Shown: one piece after another, positions 6,423 to 64,000 of the stretch
Position numbering within the stretch: position 1 is the first letter of the stretch
How the letters are laid out: each line of letters opens with the position of its first letter
Virus record (IMG/VR): IMGVR_UViG_3300022602_004810
Location: 23,068 to 87,067 of that record
Length of the DNA stretch: 64,000 nt
Reading direction: 5' to 3' (one strand)
Source: a virus
Made by a program: the position numbers and the translations under genes
Notes under the pieces: model-generated
Seen by the model: the letters and a program-made list of their open reading frames with translations, nothing else
Databases searched by the model: none
Told to the model about the DNA's origin: nothing

Positions 6423-7523
6423 TTATAAACTTGGTAATGCGTCATAGTCAATACTATCGCCCATTACACCAATGACGTAGTTAGTTGACTCTGATTCTTG
6501 TAGGGCTGTTTGTTTTTTGCTGGTATCGCTGTGCTTGTTAAACCAAGGAATAGGTGTAGTCTTTGGCGCTGGGCTTTGATATTTAATGCCTACAGCTTTT
6601 AAGGCATCTACGGCTGTATAATCAACAAAATCCTTTAAAATATTGGCATTTAACCCAATAACTGGACCTTTTTGGAACAGATAATCGGCCCAATCTTTTT
6701 CTTCCTTGATAACGCTCAAATACATCTGATATACTTCTGCTTCACATTCTACTTTAACAGCAGCAAAACGTGGATCTTCTTTGACCACTTGATTGATCAA
6801 GAACGCTGTCCACTCTTTGTGTAGTAACTCGTCTTGTAGAATCAAGCTGATAATGTTACCGTTACCAATAAAGATCTTGTTTTCAACCATGGCCAAACTG
6901 GTAGCAAATGATACCATAAAGCGGAATGCTTCTAGGCCGTAGCTGGCATGTAGGGCTAACCAAATAGCTTTGATGTGATCACGTTCTGCCACAGTTTCGC
7001 CCATTTCTTTGCGACAGTTAATAACATGTAAGGCATCATAATAATCACCAATATTACTAGCCATACCCACAATTTCTTCAGTATCGTGTATAGTATTAAA
7101 CACATCTTTAGGCACATTATAGATATTACGAATAATATGACTATAGCTCTTACTGTGAATGTTAGTTTCGAAGAAACTCCAGTTACTGATCAGTGCTTCT
7201 AGTTCCGGAATACTTACTACAGGGCCAAATACTTGATTAGGTGCGCGACCTTGTAGGCTGTCTAGAGCTGTTTGACGTAATAAGTTACTGGTAAAGATAT
7301 GTCGCACTGCTTCACTAGCATCTTTAAAATCGTTAGCATCTTTAGTTAGACTAACTTCTTCTGGTTGCCAAAAGAATCCTCTGGCTGTGGTTTCAAAGTT
7401 AGCAATCTTATTATACTTAACTTCTTCAAAGCGTTGGATAGTTACAGGACCTGCTGGGTCAAGGAACATCTTACGTTGTAAATAGTTTGTTTTAGTACTT
7501 AAATTATATTGTTCTTTACTCAT
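6423..7523 (-). CDS. nrdB: Ribonucleotide reductase class Ia beta subunit
   Basis: FFWQPEEV, ETNIHSKSY, EAFRF, DELLH iron ligands and C-terminal QESE..NY. Confidence 0.97.
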   Translation of the reverse strand: MSKEQYNLSTKTNYLQRKMFLDPAGPVTIQRFEEVKYNKIANFETTARGFFWQPEEVSLTKDANDFKDASEAVRHIFTSNLLRQTALDSLQGRAPNQVFGPVVSIPELEALISNWSFFETNIHSKSYSHIIRNIYNVPKDVFNTIHDTEEIVGMASNIGDYYDALHVINCRKEMGETVAERDHIKAIWLALHASYGLEAFRFMVSFATSLAMVENKIFIGNGNIISLILQDELLHKEWTAFLINQVVKEDPRFAAVKVECEAEVYQMYLSVIKEEKDWADYLFQKGPVIGLNANILKDFVDYTAVDALKAVGIKYQSPAPKTTPIPWFNKHSDTSKKQTALQESESTNYVIGVMGDSIDYDALPSL

Positions 7524-17573: not shown

Positions 17574-18442
17574 TATTTTGTTGCTTGTTGTTGTTGCTGT
17601 AATAGTGCTTCGAGATGCGGTACGTCTGCATCTACTACAAATCCATCGCTACCTTGTTCGTCGGGTGTAGTCCATTGCCCGTCACTCCATTTGTCTGCTT
17701 TAATACCTCGTGGAGTAGTTACTGTTGCGATTTTAGTAGCATCAGTTGGTATATTTTGATTTGTTTTTTTAATTTGCGTAGGTTGATTAAAAGATGTGCC
17801 TGTTAATGCGCCTGCTTGTTGGTCTAAGAATGCTGATGTTGACTGTGGTGGCATTTTACCAGTTTTTTGACTTACCCACTCACCTCGATCATTTAAACCG
17901 TAGTCTTTACCTTGATATTTAAGAATGATAGGTTCTTGACTAACTAGAGTAACACCGGGTGCCGCATTAGCTTGTGGCTGTTGTTGGTTATTTTGGGCGG
18001 CTTGTTGTGTTGGATTTGCTTGTCTTTTTGCAATTTCTGCACCAAGCTCTTTTTGTCCATAAGTCCCGCCACTCTTTGCGGCTAATTTAGCAGCATTGGA
18101 TAATTCGTCATCTGACATTTTACTAAAATCCGGCTTACGTCTGGTTGCCATAAAATTTAGTTGTTGTTGTACAGATTTTGGAGCAGGAACAGTTTTACCA
18201 GTGGCCGGATTAACTAGGCCCCATTGTTGACCTAACCATTGATACTCATTGCCTTTATATTTAATATTACCAGCTTTGCTTGGCTTAAGATTGTTGGCTT
18301 GCTTAAATGATTTTTTGATGTCATCTACTGCACCAGGAGCAACAAAGTCTGCAGCACCCTTAAATACACCTTGGCCTACACCCTTGGCCATATTACCAAC
18401 GTTTTTCCAAAAACCTTCAATGATTACTTCTTTAATCTTCAT
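17573..18442 (-). CDS. Gln-rich hypothetical protein, probable internal head protein
   Basis: MKIKEVIIEG start. Confidence 0.6.
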   Translation of the reverse strand: MKIKEVIIEGFWKNVGNMAKGVGQGVFKGAADFVAPGAVDDIKKSFKQANNLKPSKAGNIKYKGNEYQWLGQQWGLVNPATGKTVPAPKSVQQQLNFMATRRKPDFSKMSDDELSNAAKLAAKSGGTYGQKELGAEIAKRQANPTQQAAQNNQQQPQANAAPGVTLVSQEPIILKYQGKDYGLNDRGEWVSQKTGKMPPQSTSAFLDQQAGALTGTSFNQPTQIKKTNQNIPTDATKIATVTTPRGIKADKWSDGQWTTPDEQGSDGFVVDADVPHLEALLQQQQQATK

Positions 18443-22056: not shown

Positions 22057-23083
22057 GTAACTTTTTCCTCATTAGTTCAATTTTTAACTTACTTGATTCT
22101 CTAGCATCTAAAATGCTCTTAAGCACAAATAGTTTACCATATTTAACCACAGCTTCATTAATATCTTTACAGGTCTCTTGCCATACAGGAAAGCTAGCCG
22201 ACCAGCCATATTCCATTGCGTTTTGTAGTAATTTTGCACCCGCCTTATCACGATCTGCCACTACAATAACTTCTTTGCCTAAGCTCTCAATGATTTCAGC
22301 TTGAGTTTCACTACACTCATTGCTCATGACTGCAACACCATCTACTGACATCGCATCAAATGGGCCTTCACAGACTATGACAAACTTACTATCAGGTAGT
22401 TGATTGTTTATGTTGAACACAAAGTTAGGTTCATAGTTGCTATAGTATTTAGGCTTAACGCCATCTACAAACGCACGGCTAGTGTAGCCAATGGTCCGAC
22501 CTTCCCAAATCATAGGAATGATCACACGTTGATGCAGGCTGTGTTCTGTGCTATCAGTCCAATAAAAGTCATACTTATCGTAGTTCATTTTACGACTGTT
22601 TGTGTAGTCAACAGCTGAGTTTAGTAGTGGGGGTACATTTTTAAAATCACTCAATGTGTAAAATGATATGAATTGCTGAAAGCTAAGTGCATCTTTGGGC
22701 AGTTCTCTGACCTTAAACTCAATCTTTTCTTCAGCTTCAGCTTTAACTTCTTCTGGGTTAACTAGTTCACGGATACGAATAGCTTCAATAACTAGGCGTT
22801 TAATGTCGTTTTCATCAGCACCTAACCAACGTAAGAGTTTACGGAATTTGAATGTTAAGTGACGACCTGGTTGATAACTAGCTTTGAAGTTACAATTGAA
22901 ACACGAATATGAGATACTCCCGTCAGCATTAGCCGTAAGTCCGCCTCTGCCTCTAGTGTCGGCTGTTTCGCCGTTGTGTACGCAACATGGAGCATTTCCT
23001 GAAATCCAGCCAGATGGACTAGACTTTGTTTTGCGTCCAGTTTTCCATAAGGCTACAGTAAAATCTGATATTATTTTAATCAA
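22049..23083 (-). CDS. DNA primase (T4 gp61-like; Zn finger plus TOPRIM)
   Basis: CC..CFNC zinc ligands, CEGPFDA, DRD and KDINEA; TTG start overlaps the endonuclease stop. Confidence 0.9.
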   Translation of the reverse strand: MIKIISDFTVALWKTGRKTKSSPSGWISGNAPCCVHNGETADTRGRGGLTANADGSISYSCFNCNFKASYQPGRHLTFKFRKLLRWLGADENDIKRLVIEAIRIRELVNPEEVKAEAEEKIEFKVRELPKDALSFQQFISFYTLSDFKNVPPLLNSAVDYTNSRKMNYDKYDFYWTDSTEHSLHQRVIIPMIWEGRTIGYTSRAFVDGVKPKYYSNYEPNFVFNINNQLPDSKFVIVCEGPFDAMSVDGVAVMSNECSETQAEIIESLGKEVIVVADRDKAGAKLLQNAMEYGWSASFPVWQETCKDINEAVVKYGKLFVLKSILDARESSKLKIELMRKKLHA

Positions 23084-61487: not shown

Positions 61488-61534
61488 TGTTTGTATTTCC
61501 TTATATAAGTTATGATACGAGTGTTAACTGTATT

Positions 61535-61563
61535 ACTTTAACAGAAACACTCATATCTGTCAA
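61535..61563 (-). promoter_or_regulatory. Sigma70-type promoter
   Basis: TTGACA-N17-TAAAGT. Confidence 0.55.
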
Positions 61564-61565
61564 CC

Positions 61566-61763
61566 TCAATTGGATAAATCTGCATACTTTAGTCTAAAGT
61601 AAGTTTCAGTTGGACCAGATTCTAAAATATCTATAGTGTAACCTATATTACCACCATTCTGATAGCTACGACTTTTGCGAAACGGCCCATGCTTGATGTT
61701 ATTATCTTTGATGATCTGCTGAAACTCACGTAGTTCGTCGAACTTAATAAAGATCGTCAGCAT
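61566..61763 (-). CDS. Small protein, LRW-tail family-like
   Basis: Ends ETYFRLKYADLSN. Confidence 0.6.
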   Translation of the reverse strand: MLTIFIKFDELREFQQIIKDNNIKHGPFRKSRSYQNGGNIGYTIDILESGPTETYFRLKYADLSN

Positions 61764-62322
61764 CGTCTAGATCCTCGTCTTCATACTCCCAAATTTCTTG
61801 ACCGCTGGCATAGTCAAAGTAATATTTTTCGTTAGGTACTAACAAGCGGAATTGACCAGCATACTTAAGAGCCGCAATAAGTGCTTCATTTTTATCTGTT
61901 AGGTCACAGATAATAAAACTACTACCACAGCCACCGTGGACATGTTTGATTTCACTGTGTTGAAATTCACCTGCTAGTAGGGCATTGTGAAAATTTCCAC
62001 GATTGCCGGCAATGATACGATTGGCAATGAAGGGATGCGGTAAACGACGATCTAATAGACCTAACTTGCTGAGTGTGGCATTGTTATCGCGGTCAATACT
62101 TAGCTTACAGTCTTTGAATTTTAGGGAGCCTTTTGTATGCGGATTGTCACTCGTTTCCTTTGTGCTCCAAGGAATAGCAGCATCCACATGGTTGACATAT
62201 AGAGTTACCCCGTGTGCTTTTAACACCCACATAGGCACAGATGGATCCTCTAAATGTTTTTTGTTGAAGTGAAAAACAACGGTGTCGCATTTATACTCTA
62301 ATACATTATCAATCTATTTCAT
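61744..62322 (-). CDS. Hypothetical protein with in-frame amber codon at position 3 (ORF track calls only 61744-62238)
   Basis: AAGGA-N8-ATG AAA TAG ATT GAT..., then open in frame through VVFHFNKKHLEDPSVPMW to the stop at 61744. Confidence 0.6.
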
Positions 62323-62387
62323 TTTATTTTTCCTTTTAGTTTCGCTAATTCTGCGTTTAGTTTCTTCAAACATAGGTCCTTTGTATT

Positions 62388-62463
62388 TGGAGGGCATGGG
62401 GTGAATCTAACAACCCCTCTTACCGTTTGCCGCGGTACGCATGTGACACTCTGCTACATGCCC
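62388..62463 (-). tRNA. tRNA-Cys(GCA), atypical
   Basis: Acceptor GGGCATG/CATGCCC, U73, encoded CCA, anticodon stem TACCG/CGGTA, loop CG-GCA-AA; G33, T-loop TTAGATT and a bulged T-stem are non-canonical. Confidence 0.75.
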
Positions 62464-62466
62464 ATT

Positions 62467-62540
62467 TGGTGCGATTACTGAGAATTGAACTCAGGAACGG
62501 AGGTTTAGAATCTCCTGTTTTACCACTAAACTATAATCGC
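62467..62540 (-). tRNA. Amber suppressor tRNA (anticodon CUA)
   Basis: GCGATTA TA GTTT AGTGGTA AAAC A GGAGA TTCTAAA CCTCC GTTC CTGAG TTCAATT CTCAG TAATCGC A CCA: full cloverleaf with one A31-C39 mismatch. Confidence 0.9.
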
Positions 62541-63257
62541 CTGTTTGGCTAATACATCTTTAGCCCATATATAATATCCACCACCACCAACAAATCCCAT
62601 AAGTTTTAATGATTTGTTGATACTTTTGTGAATATTGTATAATTCTATAAATTCAGTTTCTTTTCCGTACAAGACTGTATTTTCTACTTTGTAGTGATTG
62701 GCGTTTTTATATGCTATTTTACATTCATCACTACAATATGAAACACTGTTTCTTTTAACTGATATCTTTTTTAATATTACTGTGCCGCAATATTTACATT
62801 TACGGTTAGTTTTAAGTAGTCTACCTTTTTCCCACCCTTTAGGTATAGCATCTGTTATTTTTATTTTTTTATTAGTATTTTCTAATCTATTACAAATCCA
62901 CATAGTATTATGTTGTGAAGTTTTTTCTCCCACTAAAGTTTTTAAGTAATCTGCTCTAACAACTTTCAGTGTTTCGTATTTTTTTGATGTTATATATCTA
63001 TTTTGGTTATTAGATTTGGTTAACATCATTAAAAATGCAAATATCATTTTATGATATTCATTGCTATTTTTTTCGTAAATCTTTGTTAATAATAAGTGAC
63101 ATATAAAATGTTCTTTAGCAGAAAGATTTACTAAATTTTCAAGAGCATCACTACCACCTAACGATTTAGGAATAATATGATGCCGTTCTGTATATCCATT
63201 ATACCTATTATTTTTTCTATTTGCTACAATATTATCGTAGATTCTTTTGTAATTCAT
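62526..63257 (-). CDS. Free-standing HNH homing endonuclease
   Basis: MNY.RIY, ERHHIIPKSLGGSD..NLV.L...EHF.CH.LL; C-terminal CKYC..YCS..C; very AT-rich. Confidence 0.9.
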   Translation of the reverse strand: MNYKRIYDNIVANRKNNRYNGYTERHHIIPKSLGGSDALENLVNLSAKEHFICHLLLTKIYEKNSNEYHKMIFAFLMMLTKSNNQNRYITSKKYETLKVVRADYLKTLVGEKTSQHNTMWICNRLENTNKKIKITDAIPKGWEKGRLLKTNRKCKYCGTVILKKISVKRNSVSYCSDECKIAYKNANHYKVENTVLYGKETEFIELYNIHKSINKSLKLMGFVGGGGYYIWAKDVLAKQAIIV

Positions 63258-63295
63258 TTCTAAACTCTCTAACTATAATAGTATTTAGTTAGAAT

Positions 63296-63348
63296 ACCCG
63301 TTACCAGGAGTTTTAGAAGCTCTTGCTATGTCGATCAGCTTCAAGCGC
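63296..63348 (-). pseudogene. Truncated, degenerate tRNA (CUA-like anticodon loop)
   Basis: GCGCTTG AA GCTG ATCGACA TAGC A AGAGC TTCTAAA ACTCC TGGTA ACGGG; lacks T-loop and 3' acceptor strand. Confidence 0.55.
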
Positions 63349-63357
63349 ATAACATAT

Positions 63358-63387
63358 ATTATATGGTCAAACAAAAAGGCCTGTCAA
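63358..63387 (-). promoter_or_regulatory. Sigma70 promoter for the tRNA cluster
   Basis: TTGACA-N18-TATAAT; the -35 overlaps the terminator hairpin. Confidence 0.65.
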
Positions 63388-63415: not shown

Positions 63416-64000
63416 TTATTTGAATGAGTATGTGTAGTTAACACCAACTGTATCGTATGTGCTATCACCACGTTCCATAGCATACTTAATACCTACAGCA
63501 TGCTCTGGAGTAATTGCGTATTTCGCACCAATTGAAGTTTCCCAAGTTTTGTAACCATAACCTGTATGGCCATCTAGGTTTTCATTGAATGGTGTACGTA
63601 GACGTTCTTGAACAAACGCAGTTAAGCCAGGCATAACTGTGTATTTTGCGCCTACATCAGCACGGTAGTAGATAAAGTTTGTAGTTGATTTATCTTTCTC
63701 ACCAACTGCTAGACCTGCGTATGGAGTAACACCATACCATGTACCGATATCTTTAACTGCGCCAATCTGTACTAGACCTTCATGTGCGCCGCCGTTAACA
63801 GTTTCATCTTCCATACGTCCTTCAACTTTTAAACCGTTACCAAAATCATGGCCTAAAGTAATACCATAAACTGTATGGTTGTTTGTTGAATTAACTTTGT
63901 CTTTGAAGTCAATTGATGGTGAAGCATAGTTATATGCTCCGTCAGCAAATGCTGTTGCTGATGCTACTGTTAATAATAAAGCTACTAAAAATTTACTCAT
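63416..64000 (-). CDS. Outer-membrane beta-barrel protein
   Basis: Sec signal peptide ending ATAFA, alternating amphipathic beta strands, C-terminal VNYTYSFK beta-signal. Confidence 0.8.
   Translation of the reverse strand: MSKFLVALLLTVASATAFADGAYNYASPSIDFKDKVNSTNNHTVYGITLGHDFGNGLKVEGRMEDETVNGGAHEGLVQIGAVKDIGTWYGVTPYAGLAVGEKDKSTTNFIYYRADVGAKYTVMPGLTAFVQERLRTPFNENLDGHTGYGYKTWETSIGAKYAITPEHAVGIKYAMERGDSTYDTVGVNYTYSFK

Follow-up and report, generated by a model that had tools for sequence, protein, structure and literature searches.

What does a tRNA with the anticodon CUA, tRNA(CUA), read in a large phage that still ends genes with TAG? Such tRNAs occur in the non-recoded jumbo phages XacN1 and RsoM2USA (PMC5852040, PMC8504454), and for XacN1 an in-silico read-through of 18 amber stops is reported to have given no target (PMC5852040). 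In recoded phages, suppressor tRNAs have been connected with the timing of late genes, and a standard-code relative had gained a suppressor tRNA (10.1101/2021.08.26.457843). The question is raised again by a stretch of DNA of 64,000 nucleotides from a giant lake phage, here called the window (positions 23,068 to 87,067 of IMG/VR record IMGVR_UViG_3300022602_004810, i.e., the last 64 kb of an 87-kb record, G000, that is estimated to be 25% complete). In the window, a tRNA(CUA) of the amber-suppressor type is followed by a gene whose third codon is an in-frame TAG. From comparison with its relatives we propose, with a probability of roughly 0.7, a conserved, cis-linked amber gate that couples the output of this protein to suppressor activity. 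The module is made up of a promoter, the tRNA(CUA), and the amber-gated gene. The features of the locus given below, from 61566 to 63387, all lie on the minus strand.

An early in-frame TAG and its tRNA(CUA)

The intact tRNA(CUA) occupies 62467 to 62540 and has G1-C72, C2-G71, A73, and an encoded CCA. A first-pass annotation made from the sequence alone had already called it, and indeed, ARAGORN and the Rfam tRNA model (RF00005; 63.6 bits versus a gathering score of 29) agree with that call; R1, a covariance model made from 47 family tRNA(CUA) sequences, gives 73 bits. Downstream on the same strand, the arrangement AAGGA-N8-ATG-AAA-TAG is as that annotation had read it. The Shine-Dalgarno sequence AAGGA (62331 to 62335; AAGGAG or AAGGAA at the same spacing in relatives) stands 8 nucleotides (nt) before the ATG (62320 to 62322), and AAA and then the TAG (62314 to 62316) complete the gate at 62314 to 62322. 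Past the TAG, 189 codons (IDNVLEYKCDTVVFHFNKKHLEDPS-VPMW...) stay open up to a TAA stop at 61744 to 61746, and the read-through product has 192 amino acids.

Relatives were gathered in three samples. An IMG/VR scan with the window protein found 243 relatives, from which 80 loci (49 to 92% identity) were kept; together with the window and the cultured Rhizobium phage RHph_I1_18, they make up 82 gene-anchored sources. The tRNA-anchored sample comprises 118 loci found by a degenerate tRNA pattern, with the homologue present in 43, and the metagenome sample comprises 80 loci kept out of at least 526 relatives found with a profile from TAG-less proteins. The three samples surely overlap in part, and their counts are not summed. 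The first in-frame stop upstream of the homology was TAG in all 82 gene-anchored sources, and the early TAG was also present in 39 of the 43 tRNA-anchored homologues and in 77 of the 80 metagenome loci. An early TAA or TGA was found in none of the three samples, yet TAA is the commonest stop in these genomes. An ATG stands 1 to 9 codons before the TAG, behind an AAGGAG-like site at normal spacing, in 81 of the 82 gene-anchored sources; the exception, L014, reads TAG CAT ATG, an ordinary start just past the TAG. Among 93 distinct N-terminal domain sequences from the first two samples, 88 have the TAG and 5 do not, and in a quick tree of these sequences, which is poorly resolved and has many open forks, the TAG (at codon 2 to 10) is spread throughout. 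The codon before the TAG varies, with 13 different codons among 58 distinct contexts, and the base after it is A in 57 of the 58, L014 again being the exception; a base other than U at this +4 position fits weak termination (PMC5289835). Even homologues with as little as about 40% identity keep the TAG, a nearby upstream ATG, and a same-strand tRNA(CUA). At the other end of the gene, 57 of 57 distinct complete homologues terminate with TAA or TGA; the tRNA-anchored L145 appears to end in TAG, and this second in-frame TAG, in an unconserved C-terminal tail, is probably the stop of the gene and gives no clue to the inserted amino acid.

A nonsense mutation or a sequencing error had been an early alternative. 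Contigs of two lake runs (X3 and X5), which are independent of the source sample, cover 62146 to 62466 with 0 differences. These identical contigs and the conservation in 82 of 82 sources exclude that alternative, and by this comparison, the TAG is neither a mutation nor an assembly error. In the alignment of homologues that had been suggested as a check, the segment VFHFNKKHLED is conserved, and it is the TAG itself and not a sense codon that is kept at its position in most of them.

The variation behind the TAG is of the coding type. Over the first 20 codons, the mean entropy is 0.23 at codon positions 1 and 2 versus 0.90 at position 3 (52 distinct sequences), and judged by this pattern, the stretch is translated in this frame. 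Residues V13 to D23 (VFHFNKKHLED) are invariant in 58 sequences, and in an AlphaFold model, residues 5 to 17 form a strand of the N-terminal domain, with a predicted local distance difference test score (pLDDT) of about 97 for residues 11 to 30. In the phages Atu_ph07 and Phosso, the alignment begins at the VVFHFNK stretch, which is there internal to proteins of about 175 amino acids. Therefore, GTG 62238 and the Met of PMW (Met28) are excluded as starts. Such a start would make the locus an ordinary gene, with the TAG as the stop of an upstream remnant open reading frame (ORF) (MFEETKRRISETKRKNKMK), and this reading had some appeal: GTG 62238, the start chosen by an ORF finder, is in frame 25 codons past the TAG, an in-frame ATG lies upstream of the gate at 62373, and gene callers do start at the Met of PMW, as in 24 of 150 listed database proteins, a BFVD entry of 160 amino acids, and an Atlas record. 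However, the invariant V13-D23 residues precede both starts, vary codon-wise, and belong to the fold, so that conservation and predicted fold begin 25 codons before the GTG; already contradicted by the comparison, this reading deserves almost no credence. Other database entries read M-x-Q-I..., i.e., the TAG is shown as Q. Thus, annotation misses or truncates the gated frame: it is unannotated in the GenBank record of RHph_I1_18 and elsewhere is cut at Met28 or has the TAG as Q.

We looked for the tRNA(CUA) near the gene with several tools. ARAGORN placed it within 3 kb in 57 of the 82 gene-anchored sources, always on the strand of the gene and usually as the sole tRNA there, but this is an undercount. 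Rfam found a tRNA directly upstream of the gene in nine loci that were negative by ARAGORN, with a CUA loop in 9 of 9, and the R1 model found a tRNA(CUA) with at least 64 bits in 68 of 82 sources, again always on the gene's strand. The 11 of these 68 that ARAGORN missed (L005, L006, L007, L008, L011, L013, L016, L020, L041, L049, and L051) include several with the T-loops GTTTGA or GTTAGA or with D-loops lacking GG, which Rfam and the family model detect; suppressor tRNAs of this type, and with them such modules, are therefore probably undercounted in surveys. The degenerate DNA pattern is itself blind to GTTTGA and GTTAGA T-loops, and zero matches with it were not counted as absence. In eight more sources, the pattern had a same-strand match 3 to 8.5 kb away on the contig, which brings the sources with a same-strand tRNA(CUA) on the contig to 76 of 82. 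Of the remaining six, five are contigs with less than 210 nt of sequence in front of the TAG, and the sixth, L030, is an 11-kb fragment. Three searched records of 93 to 100% completeness all have the tRNA(CUA). In the metagenome sample, R1 found it in 51 of 77 TAG loci, and most of the others have little upstream sequence. The co-occurrence of TAG and tRNA(CUA) across related phages, which the first-pass annotation had wanted checked, is thus borne out, and the conservation of both in the three samples goes far past what chance would produce. In a complete relative (G019; 363,943 bp), an array of 28 tRNAs lies at 232 to 238 kb on the other strand, and the tRNA(CUA) is found by itself at 339,529, with 4.7 kb between it and the gated gene downstream.

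The linkage extends to homologues that lack the TAG. In L107, L161, and L137, a same-strand tRNA(CUA) lies about 530 nt upstream and in L143 1.9 kb upstream; these four (4 of 4 with the tRNA) were found through the tRNA and are thus biased by the anchor. In the protein-anchored metagenome set, TAG-less L303 and L315 have the tRNA(CUA) 133 nt upstream (2 of 2 evaluable out of 3). Since TAG-less homologues still stand behind the tRNA(CUA), protein and tRNA look functionally tied.

The tRNA(CUA) family is functional-looking as judged from its alignment. Of 15 predicted pairs, 12 keep pairing through double changes in the 47 sequences (the D stem is not predicted by RNAalifold), G1-C72, C2-G71, A73, and the encoded CCA are invariant, and U33-CUA-A37 in a 7-nt loop is found in 47 of 47. 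CUA tRNAs without strong identity marks usually insert Gln or Lys. We considered whether the Q at the TAG position in the database proteins P0002, P0004, and P0033 identifies Gln as the inserted residue, but this was rejected: L203, which is 87% identical to P0002, has TAG there, so the Q, which probably comes from gene calling under code 15, is silent on which amino acid is inserted. Pyrrolysine decoding also uses a CUA anticodon to read UAG. However, PylS (TIGR02367) had no match in G000 (25% complete) or G019 (100% complete), and the tRNA here scores as an ordinary cloverleaf; the ARAGORN label "tRNA-Pyl" reflects the anticodon only.

Between this tRNA and the gate, ARAGORN alone calls a doubtful tRNA-like stretch at 62388 to 62463, a tRNA-Cys(GCA) with an encoded CCA. 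It has no Rfam match at an E value of ≤1 and no R1 match at ≤0.01, and it folds no better than shuffled sequences (z = -0.61). An odd ARAGORN call likewise lies directly behind the tRNA(CUA) of RHph_I1_18. Two other RNAs were seen next to modules of relatives. Immediately upstream of the tRNA(CUA), the other strand carries the freshwater-2 RNA motif (RF02980) in L007 (2570 to 2648), L049 (2481 to 2561), and L051 (2479 to 2559), with 68 to 78 bits versus a threshold of 49.9, and in L041 (3791 to 4259) a transfer-messenger RNA of the beta/permuted type (120 bits) lies directly 3' of the gated gene.

A sequence matching TTGACA-N16-18-TATAAT, with at most 2 mismatches, precedes the tRNA by no more than 60 nt in 28 of 48 related loci, compared to 20 of 960 control windows. 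From the end of the -10 box to the first tRNA base there are about 8 nt, and therefore, transcription should start at or beside that base; the mature 5' end of the tRNA may already be the start of the primary transcript, with little or no 5' processing needed. In 17 of the 48 loci, the 3' end of the tRNA and the TAG are 22 to 54 nt apart. Because this fits a ribosome-binding site but no second promoter, we infer that tRNA(CUA) and gated gene are co-transcribed and the transcript processed.

Genetic code and layout of the window locus

Neither the phage of the window nor its complete relative G019 is TAG-recoded (code 15). A crude ORF call on the 87-kb record gave TAA 70, TGA 28, and TAG 27 of 125 stops, and among 66 ORFs of at least 150 amino acids, 44 end in TAA, 10 in TGA, and 12 in TAG; the early estimate that about fifteen genes end in TAG was about right for the window. 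In G019, the 252 ORFs of that length end in TAA (164), TGA (81), or TAG (7), i.e., TAG is depleted there and not absent. The coding density under code 11 is 0.96 for G000 and 0.94 for G019. In G019, the TAG trinucleotide is as common as TGA though rare as a terminator, and a 189-amino-acid open frame with an RF-1 (GGQ) domain, which is too short for a full release factor, lies beside the array of 28 tRNAs.

Gates were sought with a pattern of ATG, up to 10 codons, a stop, and then at least 80 open codons. In the 87 kb, nine TAG sites pass, two of them with a Shine-Dalgarno match (17651 and 62316). The site at 17651 was taken as chance since it lies inside the preceding gene in another frame. 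Position 62316 alone in the 87 kb combines a Shine-Dalgarno sequence and a long ORF with no nearby start and no overlap with the frame of another gene. In G019, three TAG sites pass; those at 6604 and 313291 looked like chance, and only 344302, the homologue, looks genuine. There is thus one gate per genome in the 87-kb record and in the complete 364-kb G019. An early step toward TAG reassignment, which the first-pass annotation had also considered, is not what the comparison suggests, because the state is widespread across a diverged family with one such gene in the complete relative. A single-gene gate fits a stable arrangement, not a transition.

The module of the window has been rearranged. 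A consensus sigma-70-type promoter lies at 63358 to 63387 (TTGACA at 63382 to 63387, an 18-nt spacer, and TATAAT at 63358 to 63363) and ends 9 nt before the 5' end of a tRNA fragment at 63296 to 63348. This fragment of an older tRNA(CUA) comprises the acceptor, D, and anticodon arms and the start of the T arm; from 63348 on, 53 nt match the intact tRNA(CUA) of the closest relative L005 as far as 63296, within the T arm, and there an HNH cassette takes over. The HNH gene (62526 to 63257; 243 amino acids) matches Pfam HNH with 21.9 bits (cut-off, 21.4) and PHROG 655, "homing endonuclease," with an E value of 4.6e-37. The intact tRNA begins within the last codons of this gene, which is absent at this place from the closest relatives, L005 and L006. 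The intact tRNA(CUA) behind it resembles that of L010, not that of L005. Thus, the endonuclease cassette split the old tRNA gene, and a working copy, an intact tRNA of a different subtype, now lies behind it.

The neighborhood holds two further genes. A 65-amino-acid ORF (61566 to 61763), whose ATG overlaps the end of the gated gene, is kept in the closest relatives only; tblastn matched it in 7 of 81 related loci, each time at the corresponding position. A gene for a Pfam OMP_b-brl outer-membrane beta-barrel protein (window positions 63416 to 64000) recurs in 20 related loci, no more than about 2.5 kb from the module, upstream of it in close relatives and downstream in others. In the pond runs X16 and X19, variant contigs have 62118 to 62377 (258 bases; gene start and leader) swapped for 425 other letters.

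The gated protein and its homologues

Pfam and PHROGs contain no family for the gated protein. A profile search of 1.84 billion representatives returned 171 proteins at an E value of ≤0.001. A scan of 185,579 species genomes gave six loci, all on short contigs of metagenome-assembled genomes of inconsistent taxa, and therefore, no host is named. On the strength of these searches, the protein looks like a phage-only family. A megablast of 61500 to 63300 against cultured phages gave no match; tblastn against the same phages found the protein in three of them (four records), RHph_I1_18, Atu_ph07, and Phosso, with the N-terminal domain common to all. The TAG-less protein P0013 as the query found nothing in viral contigs.

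The protein has two predicted domains. The N-terminal domain (residues 1 to 92 after the TAG; 62038 to 62313) is beta-rich and carries the motifs VFHFNKKHLED, PMW, and STKET.DN.HTKGS. It is followed by a C-terminal, putatively ferredoxin-like (ACT/RRM-like) domain at 61795 to 62031 in the AlphaFold2 (AF2) model and then by an acidic tail that continues to 61747. The AF2 model of the whole protein (m3db153de07b5) has a pLDDT of 83.5, and that of the N-terminal domain (m8ffabb772cf6) has one of 93.3. Foldseek against the PDB returned nothing at an E value of ≤0.001 for either the whole protein or the N-terminal domain. The best VIA match of the N-terminal domain was PriB, an OB fold (Z 3.5; root mean square deviation [rmsd] of 3.9 over 63 residues), and many OB proteins were among the weak matches. 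For the C-terminal domain, it was an AHAS regulatory subunit (Z 5.7; rmsd of 3.5 over 73 residues), and matches to ACT and RRM domains at Z 5.0 to 5.7 are of a generic level; further RRM and ACT entries scored Z 4.3 to 5.3, a level that the tool calls common. BFVD held only the uncharacterized 160-amino-acid homologue and weak small proteins, and the Atlas features search scored at most 0.82.

Homologues consisting of the N-terminal domain only (RHph_I1_18, L104, L131, L147, L170, and others) have the TAG and adjoin a tRNA(CUA). By this distribution, the N-terminal domain is the part tied to the tRNA. In RHph_I1_18 (L002, 3074 to 3322), the homologue lies between a coding sequence for a "putative methyltransferase" and a "tRNA-Pyl(cta)" 14 nt past its stop, and its gate reads GAGGAAAGG-N9-ATG AGT GAG TTC ATG TAG AAC GAA... 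FHFNKAHLADPSIPMW...

In Atu_ph07 and Phosso, the domain is ungated. It forms the C-terminal part of the protein of about 175 amino acids, in which it is fused to a preceding helical region, and neighboring genes carry the annotations RNA ligase, peptidyl-tRNA hydrolase, and phosphatase. Both phages have a tRNA at the level of the R1 family (CUA in Phosso and UCA in Atu_ph07) without a gated gene behind it. In Phosso (L225, 1501 to 2872), the annotated tRNA(CUA) is followed by 1.3 kb without an annotated gene or long ORF. In Atu_ph07, the best R1 match (L226, 1501 to 1575) has the anticodon UCA of the opal-suppressor type and is not in the feature table of the record.

How the gate may work and what it may control

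The first-pass annotation had at its core a gate on one gene that needs the phage's own tRNA(CUA). The conservation of TAG, ATG, and tRNA and the coding-type variation past the TAG back this proposal, and suppression itself appears highly probable from the comparative data. In the mechanism that we envisage, a host-type (sigma-70-like) promoter would start a transcript at or beside the first tRNA base that runs on into the gene. Processing would free the tRNA and leave an mRNA beginning a few bases before a strong ribosome-binding site. Ribosomes would begin at the ATG, read 1 to 9 codons (ATG AAA in the window), and reach the UAG. There, release factor 1 (RF1) would end synthesis with a peptide of two residues; only where the charged phage tRNA(CUA) decodes the UAG would the 192-amino-acid protein be made. 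The output of the protein would then follow the ratio of active suppressor to RF1.

What the protein does is a more tentative matter. Because TAG-less homologues still stand directly behind the tRNA(CUA), we suggest as a working guess that it acts in the pathway of the suppressor itself and binds or controls tRNA, RF1, or the ribosome, with the early UAG as a feedback sensor. That tRNA(CUA) and gated protein form a self-contained feedback circuit that sets UAG read-through in the infected cell is more speculative still, and we consider it doubtful. If it were true, damping would give homeostasis and reinforcement a bistable switch, and standard-code jumbo phages would have a natural, tunable genetic-code dial, which would explain orphan suppressor tRNAs.

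The chief alternative is a plain timer or dosage gate, in which the phage tRNA decodes the TAG by the same mechanics but the cargo is unrelated to translation, its synthesis being delayed or scaled while the stable tRNA builds up. Such a gate would reproduce, on the scale of one gene, the timing model proposed for recoded gut phages (10.1101/2021.08.26.457843), and the protein indeed has neither a translation-related family in Pfam or PHROGs nor a convincing fold match. However, pure timing does not need TAG-less homologues that stay behind a tRNA(CUA), G019 keeps its tRNA(CUA) near the gene and apart from the array of 28 tRNAs, and in Atu_ph07 and Phosso, the domain lies amid the RNA ligase, peptidyl-tRNA hydrolase, and phosphatase genes. 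We therefore regard an unrelated cargo as possible but rather unlikely.

Two further explanations do without a gate. Ribosomes could terminate at the TAG of a mini-ORF and restart at the next codon without any suppressor, in which case the neighboring tRNA would be a coincidence. Bacteria are known to start at AUU in rare cases such as infC, and the codon after the TAG is ATT in 50, ATC in 6, AAC in 1, and CAC in 1 of the 58 distinct contexts. Initiation at this ATT, which had been raised early on, is nevertheless unlikely: the Shine-Dalgarno spacing fits the ATG, the ATT is up to about 40 nt off in some loci, and RHph_I1_18 has AAC next. Moreover, the Ile belongs to a conserved, confidently modelled strand, the stop of the leader is always TAG and never TAA or TGA, and the stretch before Met28 has no conserved ATG, GTG, or TTG, features that do not match a termination-reinitiation leader. 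Since re-initiation would also leave the near-universal same-strand linkage to tRNA(CUA) unexplained, we hold it to be very unlikely. A neutral origin, in which the TAG drifted into a tolerant N-terminal position beside a suppressor and persists without a regulatory role, seems most unlikely as well. The N-terminus is indeed poorly constrained, and a few lineages lack the TAG yet keep the gene, but drift should often give sense codons, whereas the TAG is present in 88 of 93 distinct sequences while the leader codons vary in number and identity, and the A at +4 is kept in 57 of 58 contexts.

Several observations weigh against the proposed gate or parts of it. An efficient suppressor would be costly, since TAG terminates 12 of 66 long ORFs, and behind the TAG of four genes the frame stays open without another stop until it joins the following gene (48130-49206/47023-48123, 56174-57337/55367-56173, 12405-13256/11985-12371, and 134-343/359-1252). 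These pairs, annotated as radical SAM/NifU-like, glycosyltransferase/unknown, unknown/unknown, and small ORF/phosphoesterase, look like separate genes; an active suppressor would yield fusions of them, e.g., of radical SAM and NifU-like proteins. The 5 of 93 distinct sequences without TAG indicate that the gate is dispensable in some lineages. In the window, the HNH cassette and the doubtful tRNA-like stretch part promoter, tRNA, and gene, and co-transcription is less sure there than in the relatives. Among the RNA runs listed, none contained the stretch. The nearest isoacceptor of the tRNA(CUA) among the other tRNAs of these phages is inconsistent (Thr 3, Gly 2, Met 2, and others 1 each). No homologue was found in the stretch covered in 50 of 90 ARAGORN-confirmed tRNA(CUA) loci; of these, 13 leave little space for one, 12 belong to large tRNA arrays, and 25 fall in neither class. 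The tRNA(CUA) may thus have other jobs too, and with the tRNA often found without the gene, the gene seems to depend on the tRNA more than the tRNA on the gene. As for a feedback role, what speaks for it is the gene linkage and weak fold hints (Z 3.5 to 5.7).

Compared to known systems, the proposed amber gate is close to the TAG-recoded crAss-like, Lak, and other gut phages, in which a phage tRNA(CUA) reads in-frame TAG in a standard-code host and expression is proposed to await the tRNA (10.1101/2021.08.26.457843). In contrast, the phages described here have one such gene per genome, not dozens, with the TAG at codon 2 to 10 and not scattered, and they keep TAG as a terminator (for 12 of 66 long ORFs in G000). 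Furthermore, tRNA and target are adjacent and apparently on one transcript from a sigma-70-type promoter, and the target is a small protein and not a structural or lysis gene.

A second parallel is prfB, the gene of release factor 2 (RF2), in which an autoregulatory in-frame UGA senses RF2 and is bypassed by a +1 frameshift. The likeness would lie in a conserved early in-frame stop that makes output depend on stop recognition, i.e., a sensor of termination capacity. However, the frame here continues in phase with the ATG and TAG, and bypass would be by a dedicated tRNA and not by frameshifting. The product of prfB reads the very stop that controls it, whereas for the gated protein only gene linkage points that way.

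With XacN1 and RsoM2USA, the likeness is a single CUA tRNA in a large non-recoded phage. Unlike in XacN1, a conserved candidate target stands next to the tRNA here; the gated protein family was not found in XacN1 or RsoM2USA by tblastn against cultured phages. In full-text literature, we found no description of a suppressor tRNA linked to an amber-initial gene (supplements, which possibly hold tRNA tables, were outside this search), no paper on RHph_I1_18, and nothing on single-gene gates in a 2026 jumbo-phage survey and the phage G paper.

For the suppressor tRNAs of non-recoded large phages, the locus offers a specific, conserved candidate target that adjoins the tRNA. Environmental phage contigs with the module number in the hundreds, and its presence in a cultured phage, RHph_I1_18, makes the question of their targets directly testable. 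If the gate works, the promoter, tRNA, and amber gene would form a minimal natural cassette of interest for orthogonal translation and biocontainment circuits, and these phages would use stop-codon decoding for the control of a single gene without genome-wide recoding.

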